Shown: piece after piece, positions 1,310-17,952 of the stretch | How the letters are laid out: every line of letters starts with the position of its first letter | Numbering within the stretch: position 1 is the stretch's first letter | DNA from: Candidatus Omnitrophota bacterium | GTDB taxonomy: Bacteria > Omnitrophota > Gorgyraeia > Aquiviventales > Aquiviventaceae | Reading direction: 5' to 3' | Length of the DNA: 48,402 nucleotides | NCBI GenBank assembly: GCA_016180575.1 | Contig: JACPAY010000007.1 | Coordinates: 77,642 to 126,043 of the forward strand | The notes under the pieces: model-generated | Database searches by the model: none | What the model was told of the DNA's origin: nothing | Seen by the model: only the letters and a program-made list of their open reading frames with translations | Position numbers and translations under genes: made by a program

Positions 1310-4300
1310 ATGCTCCACGCCGACTTCGTCCACCTGCACCTCCACACGAACTACTCCCTCCTGGATGGCGCCTGCCGCATCGGCCCGCTCGTGAAGCGCG
1401 CGGCCGAGCTGAAGTTCCCCGCGATGGCGATGACCGACCACGGCAACCTCTTCGGGGCGATCGAGTTCTACGAGACGTGCACGAAGGCGGGCATCAAGCC
1501 CATCATCGGCGTGGAGGGCTACATCGCCCCCAAGAGCCGCTTCGACAAGTCCGGGACCGGCATCCGGGACACCAACGCCCATCTGGTGCTGCTCGCCAAG
1601 GACGAGGCCGGCTACGCCAACCTCATGCGCCTGGTCACCGCCGGCTACCTCGAGGGGTTCTACTACAAGCCCCGGATCGACAAGGAGATCCTGGCGCAGC
1701 ACAAGGAGGGGCTGCTCCTCCTGACGAGCTGCCTCAAGGGCGTGCTGAACGTCCACCTCGCGCAGGACCAATGGGACCTCGCGCGCAGGGAGCTGGACGA
1801 CTTCATCCAGATCCTCGGCAAAGAGAACGTCTACGTCGAGCTGCAGCGCCACGGCCTGCCGCTCGAGGACAAGGTCCGCCCGCTGCTGCGCCGCCTGGCG
1901 CAGGACGCCGGGGTCCGGTGCGTCGCCACCAACGACGTCCACTACATCGAGCAATCACACGCCGAGGCGCACGACGCGCTCATGGCCATCCAGACGCAGA
2001 CGACGGTGGACGACCCGCACCGCCTGCGCTATGAGCAGCCGGCGTTCTTCCTGAAGTCCGCCGAGGAGATGAAAGCGCTCTTCAGCGAGGAGCCGGACGC
2101 CCTGGCGGCGACGCTGGAGATCGCGGAGCGGTGCAACCTGGAGCTGGAGTTCGGGAAGATCCACCTGCCGCACTACGAGCCGCCGGCGGGGAAGAGCCAG
2201 CACGCGTACCTGGAGGAGCTCTGCGCCAACGGCCTCAGGGGCCGCTACGGCGAGGCCACGCCGGCGCTCGCGGAGCGGCTCGAGCATGAGCTGGCGGTCA
2301 TCCAGCAGGCGGGCTACACCAGCTACTTCCTCATCGTCTGGGACTTCGTGCGGTTCGCCAAGGAGCGGGGGATCCCGGTGGGGCCCGGCCGGGGCTCCGC
2401 GGCGGGGAGCCTGGCGAGCTACTGCCTCGGGATCACCGACATCGACCCGCTGAAGTACGACCTCCTCTTCGAGCGGTTCCTGAACCCCCAGCGCGTCACG
2501 CAGCCCGACATCGACATCGACTTCTGCTACGAGCGCCGCAACGAGGTCATCGATTACGTCGTCCAGAAATACGGGAAGACCAACGTCGCCCAGATCATCA
2601 CCTTCGGGACGATGCAGGCGAAGGCGGTCGTGCGCGACGTCGCGCGCGTCATGAAGCTCTCCTACGCCGAGGCGGACCGGCTGGCCAAGCTGATCCCGAA
2701 CGAGCTGGACATCACCCTCTCGCGCGCCCTCGCCGAGGTGCCGGAGCTGGTCCACGCCTACCGCACGAGCGAGCAGGTGCAGCAGCTCATGGACACGGCG
2801 CTGGTCCTCGAAGGCCTCACGCGCCACGCCTCCACCCATGCGGCGGGGATCACCATCGCCGACAAGCCGCTCACCGAGTACGCGCCGCTCTTCAAGAGCC
2901 ACGACGGCCAGATCACGACCGGCTTCGACATGACGGCGCTGGAGCACATCGGGCTGCTGAAGATCGACATGCTCGGGCTGCGCACCCTCACGGTCATCGA
3001 CGAGGCGGTCAAGCTCATCGAGCGGCGGCACGGGACGCTCATCAACATCGACGCGCTGCCCCTCGATGACCCGGAGACCTTCCAGCTCCTGGCGCGCGCC
3101 GAGACGATGGGCGTGTTCCAGCTGGAAAGCTCCGGGATGCGGGACCTCCTCAAGAAGATCAAGCCCACCCAGTTCGAGGACATCATCTCGGTCATCGCGC
3201 TCTTCCGGCCGGGCCCCATCGGCTCCGGGATGCTCGATGAGTTCATGAAGCGCAAGCACGGCGAGATCGCGATCCGCTACGAGCACCCGCGCCTCGAACC
3301 AATCCTCAAGTCGACGTACGCCGTCATCGTGTTTCAGGAACAGGTCATGCGCATCGCGAGCGACCTCGCCGGCTTCTCGCTCGCCCAGGCCGACCTGCTG
3401 CGCCGCGCGATGGGGAAGAAGATCCCCGAGGTCATGGAGGCGCAGCGCAAGGCGTTCGTCGACGGGTGCAGGAAGAACGGCATCACCGAGCGCACCGCGA
3501 GCCGCATCTTCGACCTGATGGAGCACTTCGCGGGGTACGGCTTCAACAAGAGCCACAGCGCCGCCTACGCGCTCATCTCATACCGCACCGCGTACCTCAA
3601 GGCGCGCTATCCGGCCGAGTTCATGACCGCACTGCTCACGAGCGAGATGGGCAACACCGACAAGCTCGTCGTCTACCTGGACGAGGCCAAGCGCACGGGC
3701 CTGGCGGTGCTCCCGCCGGACGTGAACGAGAGCCAGGCGTTCTTCACGGTGGCGGACGCGCGCACGATCCGCTGCGGCCTGGGGGTCATCAAGAACGTGG
3801 GGTTGGCCGCCATCGACTCGCTCATCCAGGCGCGGGCGGCCCGCCTGTCTGCCGTCCCGTCCGGGACGGGACAGGCAGGCGGGCGGTTCCGGACGGTGCA
3901 GGAGCTCTGCCGCGACGTGGACCTGCGGCTCATGAACCGCAAGGTGTGCGAGAGCCTCATCAAGTCGGGCGCCTGCGACAGCATGGGGCTCTCGCGCGCG
4001 GCGCTCCTGGCGAGCCTCGACCAGGCGATGGAAGAGGCCACGAGCCTGCAGAAGGACCGGGTGCGCGGCCAGCTCACCTTCTTCGACTCGCTCGCCGAGA
4101 GCCCGCCCGTCACGCCGGCGGGCGGCGCCCCGGCCCATGGAAGCCTGCCAGCGGGGGTGAGCCGGCTGCGGGACTGGCCGGAGAGCCAGAAGCTCGCGTT
4201 TGAGAAGACGCTGCTCGGCTTCTACGTGTCCGGGCATCCGCTGGCCCGCTATGAGCGCACGTTGAAGCTGTTCGCCACCGCCACCTCCCGGCAGCTCCTC

Positions 4301-5225: not shown

Positions 5226-6548
5226 ATGGGATTCCAGGCCGTCCGGGGCACAACCGATCTCCTGCCCGACGAGGTGGCGCGCTGGTCCGCGGTGGAGCAC
5301 ACCGCCAGGCGCCTGTCCCGCCTGTACGGCTACCGAGAGATCCGCACCCCCATCATCGAGGAGGCCGGCCTCTTCCTGCGCTCGGTCGGCGAGACCACCG
5401 ACATCATCCAGAAAGAGATGTTCCGCTTCGAGGACCGGGGCGGGCACGACCTCGTCCTGCGGCCCGAGGCGACCGCCTCCGTCGTCCGCGCCTACCTGGA
5501 GCACCACCTCCACAAGACCGAGGGGTTCGCGAAGCTGTTCTATCTTGGCCCCATGTTCCGGGCCGAGCGGCCGCAGGCCGGCCGGTTCCGGCAGTTCCAT
5601 CAGTTCGGGGTGGAGGCGATCGGCTCCGGCAGCGCCTGGGTGGACGTCGAGGCGATCCTGCTCTGCGCACAGATCCTGCGCGCCTGCGGCCTGCCTGCCG
5701 CGCTACCGTCGCAACCGACTGGCGCGGCGCAGGCAGGCGTCGCCGGCGCGACCGTCTGGCTCGCCAGCATGGGATGCCGCGCGGACCAGAAGCGCTCGGC
5801 CGAGGCGCTGCGCAAGCGGTTGAGCCCGCACCGCGCCAAGCTGTGCAAGGAGTGCCAGGCGCGGTTTGACAAGAACGTCTTCCGCGTCCTCGACTGCAAG
5901 AACCCCTCCTGCCGCGCGATCGCCTGGGAAACACCCGGCTCGCCCTTCCTGCTCTGCGACGCCTGCGCCGCGCACTTCGACGAGGTGCGCCGGGGTGTGC
6001 GCGAGGCCGGCGTGGCGTTCGACGACACCAAGGTCTTCGCGCGGGGGCTGGACTACTACACCCGCACCGTCTTCGAGGTCCGCGTCCAGGGCCTCGGCGC
6101 CCAGGACGCGGTCGCGGCGGGCGGGCGGTACGACCACCTCGTCGAGGAGCTGGGGGGGCCTCCGCTCGGCGCGGTGGGATTTGCCGCCGGCATCGAGCGG
6201 CTCCTGATGGCGCTCAAGCAGGGCGCCGCCGAGGCCCCGAGCCCCGCGCGGCGCGGCGTGTACCTTGCGGTCGCGCAGGCGGCGCTGCTGGGCGACGGCT
6301 TCCGCCTCGTGCACCGCCTGCGCGAGCGGGGGGTGGCGGCGCTCATGGACTACGACGGCAAGAGCCTCAAGGCGCAGCTGCGGGAGGCGGACAAGCTCGG
6401 CTGCCGGCTCGTTGCGATCCTCGGCGAAGCGGAGCGGACGCAGGGCGCGATGACGCTCAAGGACCTGGAGCAGGGCAGCCAGCAGACCGTCGCGCTCGAC
6501 GCCTTTGTGGAGGAAGCCGCGAAACAGGCCAAGGCTACATGCCATTGA
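5226..6548 (+). CDS. hisS: Histidine--tRNA ligase
   Basis: VRGTTD, LRPEATA, FRAERPQAGRFRQFHQ, RGLDYY, GGRYD, GFAAGIER. Confidence 0.99.
   Translation: MGFQAVRGTTDLLPDEVARWSAVEHTARRLSRLYGYREIRTPIIEEAGLFLRSVGETTDIIQKEMFRFEDRGGHDLVLRPEATASVVRAYLEHHLHKTEGFAKLFYLGPMFRAERPQAGRFRQFHQFGVEAIGSGSAWVDVEAILLCAQILRACGLPAALPSQPTGAAQAGVAGATVWLASMGCRADQKRSAEALRKRLSPHRAKLCKECQARFDKNVFRVLDCKNPSCRAIAWETPGSPFLLCDACAAHFDEVRRGVREAGVAFDDTKVFARGLDYYTRTVFEVRVQGLGAQDAVAAGGRYDHLVEELGGPPLGAVGFAAGIERLLMALKQGAAEAPSPARRGVYLAVAQAALLGDGFRLVHRLRERGVAALMDYDGKSLKAQLREADKLGCRLVAILGEAERTQGAMTLKDLEQGSQQTVALDAFVEEAAKQAKATCH
5689..5738. repeat. In-frame palindromic insertion in hisS (LPAALPSQPTGAAQAG)
   Basis: gcctgcctgc / gcaggcaggc perfect 10-bp stem enclosing cgcgcta..gtcg-caac-cgac..tggcgcg. 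Confidence 0.85.

Positions 6549-15172: not shown

Positions 15173-17952
<2,780 letters not shown>

Follow-up and report, generated by a model that had tools for sequence, protein, structure and literature searches.

The hisS gene in a 48,402-nucleotide stretch of DNA from a Candidatus Omnitrophota bacterium (the whole of this stretch is called the window here) carries an in-frame palindromic insert, and comparison with a second genome shows that the insert is a precise 48-nt addition, made without target-site duplication and later than the same-genus split. The insert is one of many copies of a short hairpin element in this genome, and elsewhere the ends of the same element bracket a complete nuclease domain. 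The reading that we prefer, and consider probable, is that the hisS insert would be a miniature, gene-less member of a hairpin-bounded mobile family whose full-length form encodes a GIY-YIG nuclease, and that this nuclease would move the short copies in trans.

The hisS insert and its empty site

The insert and its host gene occupy the following positions in the window:

5226..6548, + strand: hisS, histidyl-tRNA synthetase (HisRS), 440 aa, the host gene
5690..5737, + strand: the hisS hairpin element, 48 nt, delimited by its palindromic termini and by empty-site comparison
5690..5704, + strand: short arm, 15 nt, CCTGCCTGCCGCGCT (the family consensus ends in C)
5705..5720, + strand: variable 16-nt core, ACCGTCGCAACCGACT, partly self-pairing; the closest sibling core is at G000:C10:18231
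5721..5737, + strand: long arm, 17 nt, GGCGCGGCGCAGGCAGG; the 2-nt bulge formed by its extra GC orients the element

The element on the + strand ends in the palindromic termini CCTG...CAGG when placed at 5690-5737; counted in codons, the same insert lies at 5691-5738 and reads as 16 codons (LPAALPSQPTGAAQAG) of the hisS open reading frame (ORF), with GGC at each junction, so that the placement slides by up to 3 nt along that GGC. Perfect 10-nt inverted arms (GCCTGCCTGC and GCAGGCAGGC) are found within 5689-5738, and the stem of the hairpin includes an inner CGCGC/GCGCG helix beyond the 2-nt GC bulge. Folded as RNA, the 71-nt region reaches -53.3 kcal/mol (z = -4.35), and none of 200 dinucleotide shuffles was equally stable.

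In the protein, the insert makes up HisRS residues 156-171 and lies between motif 2 and the strand leading into the HisRS insertion domain. The HisRS sequences of all 24 relatives compared (23 loci from the 31 related genomes searched, together with a fragment from a genome of the same genus, L025) lack precisely these 16 residues (ILRxC-GV...), and alignment with the E. coli enzyme (1kmm) leaves a 15-residue gap there. The insert would be translated as a 16-residue loop rich in Ala, Pro, Gly and Gln, and the alignment gaps suggest that this loop may lie on the surface. At the nucleotide level, the same-genus genome (G001) has the empty site, TGCGGC|GTCGCC; the genome under study (G000) is longer there by exactly 48 bases, placed to within the 3 nt of GGC. 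The sequence-only reading of the window had described a 48-nt palindromic insert in frame in hisS, whose removal restores ILRACG-VAGATVWL, and the perfect arms, the 16 codons, the 24 insert-free relatives and the empty site bear it out on both counts.

A separate feature of the same protein lies downstream of the insert, in the HisRS insertion domain (window 5820-5980, residues ~200-250), where C207, C210, C224 and C229 are invariant across 22 relatives. This four-Cys part, which is not found in the E. coli HisRS alignment, looks like a zinc-ribbon-like module.

The family in this genome

The assembly that holds the window (as G000:C25:77642-126043) comprises 1.31 Mb in 28 contigs, with 69% GC, and is 84.6% complete. 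The search pattern that the sequence-only reading had put forward gives 29 matches genome-wide, and a refined search, in which mismatches were allowed and a terminal stem was required, gives 38 non-redundant copies. The exact 15-mer arm occurs 23 times in the genome as against 0 times for a reversed control, and the family therefore exceeds chance. Each copy has its variable core between an arm of 15 nt (CCTGCCTGCCGCGCC) and one of 17 nt (GGCGCGGCGCAGGCAGG), and is oriented by the 2-nt asymmetry between the arms. Host genes include dnaE, hisS, ppdK and a GatA-like gene, and two sibling copies lie with that of hisS in the window:

3844..3879, + strand: copy in dnaE, 36 nt, with T-variant arms (CCTGTCTGCCGTCCC...), in frame as LSAVPSGTGQAG
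15267..15323, + strand: copy in a ppdK-like ORF, 57 nt, a compound hairpin near the N-terminus (LSAPRARQ...GQAG)

The three inserts in hisS, dnaE and ppdK (48, 36 and 57 nt) have their termini and their register in common, as had been read from the window. The accompanying view that the ends are conserved and the cargo varies has been confirmed and extended, as the cargo elsewhere is a whole GIY-YIG nuclease domain.

Copy lengths in the genome are 30 nt (three copies), 33 nt (eight), 36 nt (four), 45 nt (one), 48 nt (19) and 51, 54 and 57 nt (one each), a multiple of three in 38 of 38 cases; every pattern match with a length that was not a multiple of three proved to be one of these copies re-read with a 4-nt shift. 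The 16-nt cores of the 48-mers are almost wholly different from one another, with a mean of 5.2 matches in 16 compared to 4.2 in shuffles; three pairs of cores have ten or more matches where 0.47 were expected, and a weak NNCG...CGAYN consensus can be made out. Capture of genomic sequence as a source of the cores was considered and set aside, 13-mer matches elsewhere in the genome being few and at chance level.

About 935 kb of the same-genus genome, G001, were aligned against each copy with 250 nt of flank, which gave 25 comparable sites (24 real copies with a spanning alignment, and hisS). At ten of the 25, the site in G001 is cleanly empty and the gap equals the length of the element (33, 36, 45 or 48 nt):

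C9:99, C13:36784 and C13:73356: clean empty sites, 33 nt
dnaE: clean empty site, 36 nt
C13:64101: clean empty site, 45 nt
C13:27116, C13:33315, C17:39002, C20:6711 and hisS: clean empty sites, 48 nt

About nine more sites are element-free in G001 with ragged alignments, four have unrelated extra G001 sequence, and the same element is present at 0 of the 25. The reciprocal case also exists, in that the one copy present in these ~935 kb of G001 (L096:1269-1316) lies at a site that is empty in G000. The junctions at the ten clean sites show 0-3 nt of microhomology and no constant duplication, and the simplest description of these insertions is that CCTG...CAGG was inserted mostly at G^C.

The same comparison bears on whether the hairpins are kept for a host function, either as a structural signal in mRNA or DNA or as a flexible linker. 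The arms are strongly conserved at the nucleotide level and an mRNA hairpin of this kind would be very stable. Furthermore, the site of one copy (G000:C24:19077-19106) is occupied in G001 (L051) by a different 30-nt hairpin (GCCTGCCCCACCACC...GGTGGGGGGG) in which the stem has co-varied, being altered on both sides; it represents either compensatory drift of an old copy or another hairpin family that uses the same spot. However, presence differs at all 25 comparable same-genus sites, with ten cleanly empty, the host genes are unrelated, relatives fare well insert-free, and the element has no Rfam family (no match at E<=1). We consider maintenance for a host function quite improbable.

Nearly all copies lie within genes. 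A codon-usage log-odds score, trained on 161 long ORFs and applied to 150 nt on either side of each copy, places 36 of the 38 in coding sequence and two in intergenic sequence (C20:2063 and C20:11313). The register seen in hisS, nnC|CTG CCT GC., which encodes L-P/S-A...Q-A-G, is in frame on both flanks of 24 copies; for nine further copies near a gene end the coding flank is again in this register, making 33 of 36 coding copies. The CCT GCC TGC register (P-A-C...A-G-R) accounts for the other three and the third (C-L-P-R) for none. Both orientations occur on the sense strand, ~24 copies reading LPAAP...GAAQAG and ~8 reading LPAPR...ARQAG.

The suspicion raised by the sequence-only reading that frame and length are not random is thus upheld genome-wide, with the caveat to the register bias that there are three exceptions here and that many copies elsewhere lie outside long ORFs. 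As to the cause, the same reading had left a choice between selection against the Cys-containing registers and a preference for particular targets or frames, and the evidence favors the former. In the genes of this genome, G^C, GG^CG and SG^CG motifs fall in the relevant codon phase in 24-32% of cases, so a simple target preference cannot account for a bias of 33 in 36; on the evidence of the empty sites and the phase counts, neither a target duplication of fixed length nor a simple target motif is accepted as the cause of the register. We favor selection on the encoded peptide, because the other two registers both encode Cys and more Arg. L-P/S-A...Q-A-G is also the register that the nuclease-bearing form needs for its translation.

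Several candidates and variants deserve mention beside the 38 copies. A candidate at C25:114667 was dropped as conserved, ordinary coding sequence, and solo arm matches at C10:287 and C24:44217 were likewise plain coding sequence and not elements. The former of these, an exact 17-mer match to the long arm at G000:C10:287-303, is part of an aldehyde-dehydrogenase-like coding sequence (..TACLRRAAAL..). Single arms thus arise by chance from favored codons, and solo-arm counts consequently overstate the family.

A T at arm position 5 (CCTGTCTG...CAGGCAGG) distinguishes the dnaE copy (3844-3879) and those at G000:C14:3131, C9:99, C28:41015, C20:2063 and C20:11313. The variant arms form a T-G wobble on one strand and a C-A mismatch on the other, which hints that folding may be needed on one strand only. 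Directly upstream of both intergenic 33-nt T-variant copies there is a different repeat of ~90 nt (G000:C20:1900-2062 and C20:11150-11312), which has more than ten matches in the same-genus genome; these two 33-nt hairpins may be the end of a larger composite repeat.

Full-length and short forms in other genomes

When 401 genomes of the phylum were scanned for the arms at a spacing of 150-450 nt, a single case came up, G240:C9:6538-6822, which is 285 nt (95 codons) long. Between its arms lies a GIY-YIG domain (PF01541, E 1.6e-17) that has no start or stop codon of its own and is read on the LPAPR...ARQAG strand, in frame within an ORF that exceeds 801 aa. A metagenome scan for arms 243-273 nt apart returned at least 120 loci. 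Sizes among the matches listed are 282 nt (76 copies), 285 nt (16), 297 nt (eight), 300 nt (eight), 279 nt (five), 294 nt (three), 291 nt (two) and 286 and 287 nt (one each); 118 of the 120 listed are multiples of three, 115 are open in the LPAPR...ARQA register, and 110 are open for at least 30 codons, or to the end of the locus, on both sides. The 94-aa insert matches nuclease models only (GIY-YIG, with weaker matches to T5orf172 and MUG113). Among solved structures, those of UPF0213 are closest (1zg2/1ywl, E 5e-15 in the PDB), and NCBIfam gives nothing above cut-off.

These lengths and frames also speak to the possibility that the insert is not translated at all, owing to ribosomal bypassing between the matched GGC codons or to removal from the mRNA. 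The translational bypass elements of T4 gene 60 and the mitochondrial 'byp' elements resemble this layout, and the GGC codons on either side of a strong hairpin would make suitable take-off and landing sites. Bypass would free both length and frame; yet all 38 copies in this genome are multiples of three and stop-free in frame, and the full-length copies listed, multiples of three with two exceptions, carry a nuclease that is readable only by translating through. Moreover, matched GGC codons are a trivial result of inserting palindromic ends at GG^C. An untranslated insert is, in our judgment, scarcely credible.

The hosts of the full-length form were typed by Pfam searches with 58 flank pieces from ~35 loci, ~20 of the pieces being without a match. 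Most are restriction-modification or defense genes, in which the insert takes up recurrent positions (at the C-terminal end of N6_Mtase, and in HsdR between the T1R_D3-like and T1RH-like_C domains); the Pfam domains HSDR_N (at profile positions 91|98) and PDDEXK_1 (131|136) are cleanly split by it, and other hosts carry Methylase_S, Eco57I/MmeI, SNF2 or HPPK. In the protein database, 221 longer proteins hold the embedded domain at E<=1e-10. The top of the list is biased by the query, which was the domain of an HsdS host; the 120 proteins listed include 36 with HsdS domains, 22 with HsdR, 19 with HsdM and 9 with MsrB, and there are single cases in ArgRS, AlaRS, a LeuRS-type synthetase, trigger factor, DHFR and a Mur ligase.

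Where full-length copies occupy the same site in diverged hosts, with flanks 29-95% identical, the nuclease domains are 57-86% identical and the arms are identical (two pairs with 100%-identical flanks look like one sequence sampled twice). The identity of the arms is partly an effect of ascertainment, since the search required exact arms, but the comparison nonetheless shows that they are under nucleotide-level constraint beyond the needs of the peptide.

Short copies were sought by a pattern scan with exact arms, with one genome per species, which found at least 113 loci and at least 114 copies. All of the exact-arm matches listed come from metagenome-assembled genomes (MAGs), and the depositors' titles cover ~17 phylum-level labels, namely Omnitrophota, Latescibacterota, Planctomycetota, Verrucomicrobiota, Methylomirabilota, Desulfobacterota, Beta-/Gammaproteobacteria, Chloroflexota, Bipolaricaulota, WOR-3, Tectomicrobia, Nitrospira, Gemmatimonas, Bacillota, Saccharibacteria with Kaiserbacteria, Schekmanbacteria and Eisenbacteria. 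One match is a closed chromosome of 4.08 Mb with at least 20 copies, which rules out an artifact of short-read assembly. Viral contigs held three short copies and no full-length one. When exact arms were counted per genome among the 31 relatives, G000 (23) and G005 (eight) stood out, the others having between 0 and 2.

Among these listed matches, 109 of the 114 copies have lengths that are multiples of three. The five exceptions (38 nt three times, 32 nt and 44 nt) include none that is unambiguously within a long ORF. Sorting the 114 by their 300-nt flanks puts 31 within a long ORF and 28 where no ORF runs through, with 55 ambiguous; of the 31 unambiguous coding copies, 21 are in register 2, which is that of the hisS copy, eight in register 0 and two in register 1. 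The habit of lengths in multiples of three thus goes with the family as such, whereas the register bias, though general, is less strong outside the present genome. The three 38-nt copies (L155, L174 and L191) are all from one MAG, two of them without a through-ORF and the third ambiguous, which fits a relaxation of the rule of three outside genes.

Proposed mobilization and relation to known elements

A possible means of movement is offered by the Ssn nucleases. In the sections of Chenal et al. 2025 (PMC11893778) that describe them, these are 94-aa, single-domain GIY-YIG proteins, their genes are flanked by hairpin repeats, and they cut single-stranded DNA (ssDNA) beside the hairpin whatever the loop sequence or extension. 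The authors note there the insertion sequence (IS)-like architecture of Ssn and its repeats; the terms 'in-frame', 'intragenic' and 'RPE' are not used in the main text of that paper.

By analogy, we propose that the full-length form (~282 nt, 94 codons) would produce its GIY-YIG nuclease only as an in-frame internal domain of a host protein. In ssDNA the two arms would pair into a stem, which the nuclease of the family would recognize and cut, and the cut would start excision or copying; short copies with intact arms would be moved in trans. Within genes, only those copies with lengths in multiples of three and a harmless peptide would survive selection, resulting in the rule of three and in the near-single register. 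Mobility driven by the nuclease is something that we infer from this analogy. The copies in the present genome may now be orphans, because the assembled ~85% contains no cognate nuclease.

Several observations weigh against such a mechanism. No homolog of the nuclease domain was found in G000 (best tblastn E 0.37; none at E<=1 by profile; 84.6% complete), where the sole PF01541 match is inside a 952-aa frame. Small GIY-YIG genes are present in 25 of 31 relatives, and arms were found on none of the nine best ones examined. In addition, ~24 of the ~32 in-register copies in G000 are oriented opposite to the full-length form, and the 16-nt cores are unlike the edges of the nuclease ORF (position weight matrix score -6.6 compared to a shuffle mean of -5.9), so the miniatures are not simple remnants of in-place deletion. 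Such an origin is not supported by the comparison of the cores of the 19 48-mers with the first and last 8 nt of nuclease interiors, which matched no better than shuffles. The degenerate motif published for SRM, the repeats of the Ssn system, is matched by 0 of the 38 copies on either strand, with 13 matches genome-wide, and none of the nearest solved structures, all UPF0213, is named Ssn. Finally, GIY-YIG enzymes are hydrolytic and have no known strand-joining step, so they do not account for the pasting.

Some of these points would suit a different account, in which it is primarily the hairpin that moves or propagates itself, with host replication, host repair or another enzyme spreading it, and the GIY-YIG domain is only a passenger that came to lie in the loop of one lineage. 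Short forms far outnumber and out-range full-length ones, with at least 113 loci under ~17 phylum labels; G000 has 38 miniatures with no nuclease found and with cores that are not ORF remnants; and hairpin loops tolerate any cargo in the experiments described by Chenal et al. (PMC11893778). Conversely, the nuclease-bearing copies, at least 120 in number, display one architecture, one length class, one orientation and one register, which argues for a co-adapted unit and not a chance passenger, and the arms are identical though the nuclease diverges to ~60% identity. We judge a hairpin with a mere passenger to be unlikely, and continue to prefer movement by the family nuclease.

REP/BIME sequences are short, GC-rich, imperfect palindromes that lie outside genes, form hairpins in ssDNA and are tied to a REP-flanked Y1 transposase, and a REP-type element moved by a RAYT of the IS200/IS605 Y1 family would share several features with the present one. 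Both are multiplied, GC-rich, imperfect palindromes, here with a bulge, and both insert without target duplication, as in 'peel and paste' of ssDNA; G000 also encodes one Y1_Tnp protein (C24:16879-17208, E 3e-14). On its flanks, however, this Y1 gene has a different hairpin (GTACCGGGTAC...) in place of the family arms, 36 of the 38 copies are intragenic, and the autonomous partner associated with the arms is the GIY-YIG domain and not Y1. Mobilization by a RAYT is thus very improbable. The Y1 locus itself (G000:C24:16738-17538), the assembly's only one (PF01797), has at its end a strong hairpin (AAAGTACCGGGTACTT...AAGTACCCGGTACTTT) that is richer in AT and bears no relation to the family.

Two other systems are among the closest known to the present element. 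Rickettsia palindromic elements (RPEs; Ogata et al. 2000/2002, as summarized in the review PMC10969869) are palindromic repeats of ~150 bp in Rickettsia that are translated in many genes, and the passage on RPEs in that review, which concerns MITEs, mentions no mobilizing enzyme. The element described here is similar in being a gene-less palindromic repeat, in frame in many unrelated and often essential genes, that adds an extra peptide. Going by the description of RPEs (~100-150 bp with a conserved peptide), it is set apart by its length of 30-57 nt and by conservation of only the arm-encoded ends (LPA.../...QAG), as well as by its invariant 15- and 17-nt arms, its occurrence under ~17 phylum labels and the sharing of its arms with a nuclease-bearing form. 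With Ssn/SRM it has in common a 20-50-nt inverted-repeat hairpin in many copies, and a ~94-aa GIY-YIG nuclease bracketed by inverted-repeat hairpins alongside many solo copies; a GIY-YIG gene flanked by the repeats is present for the family (in G240 and in at least 120 metagenome loci) but not in G000. Ssn genes are described as ordinary genes beside their repeats; the present nuclease, by contrast, lacks a start and a stop codon and lies in frame within host ORFs, and the arms are those of one hairpin split around it. The element therefore works like RPE and Ssn/SRM but fits the definition of neither.

The features tested also set it apart from REPs, classical MITEs, inteins and bypass elements. 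REPs and bypass elements differ from it as set out above, in the intragenic position of the copies and the unrelated hairpin of the sole Y1 gene, and in the lengths and open frames of all 38 copies, respectively. It resembles a MITE in having terminal repeats in common with a form of autonomous type (279-300 nt), the enzyme being GIY-YIG and not DDE, and is unlike a classical MITE in the lack of a fixed-length target duplication at the ten clean empty sites. Like inteins with homing endonuclease domains, the full-length form places a nuclease without signals of its own in frame in conserved genes, at recurrent sites in diverged hosts. Unlike inteins, its ends are set by a DNA hairpin and not by splice junctions, and the 94-codon insert has no Hint domain, so it should stay in the host protein.

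It is possible, and we suggest it tentatively, that this is an undescribed kind of mobile element: a GIY-YIG ssDNA nuclease cassette with an invariant split hairpin but with neither start codon, stop codon nor promoter, which would exist only as an in-frame internal domain, cross phyla mainly by way of restriction-modification genes and spawn miniatures of 30-57 nt, the source of added loops in essential enzymes such as HisRS and DnaE. Searches of the literature by word and by arm sequence returned no description of the element, the only arm match being to an unrelated paper on the OAT1 kidney transporter.

If the proposal is true, in-frame palindromic repeats of the RPE kind, which have been recognized in essential genes since those of Rickettsia and have long lacked an explanation, would gain a concrete and testable mobilizing enzyme, and the exact ends common to the miniatures and the nuclease form would turn both the spread of coding palindromes and their in-frame habit into a question for the bench. 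A nested, signal-less nuclease cassette would be an unusual route for the expression of selfish DNA. As the domain sits in database proteins annotated as HsdS, HsdR, HsdM or synthetases, their annotation and domain analysis are affected. Moreover, a small ssDNA nuclease with sequence specificity for a defined hairpin site of 32 nt could serve as a reagent, as has been argued for Ssn.

Two other small GIY-YIG genes were considered as members of the family and rejected on their surroundings. The one in G031, a Latescibacterota record, is free-standing and lies between two direct repeats of ~200 nt that are unrelated to the arms (L217:1300-2100); it may be another kind of small nuclease cassette. 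The one in G001 is beside a tRNA duplication (L076:480-1020), between two tRNA-like copies of which the downstream one ends in CCA, and has the appearance of an insertion in a tRNA gene or next to one.

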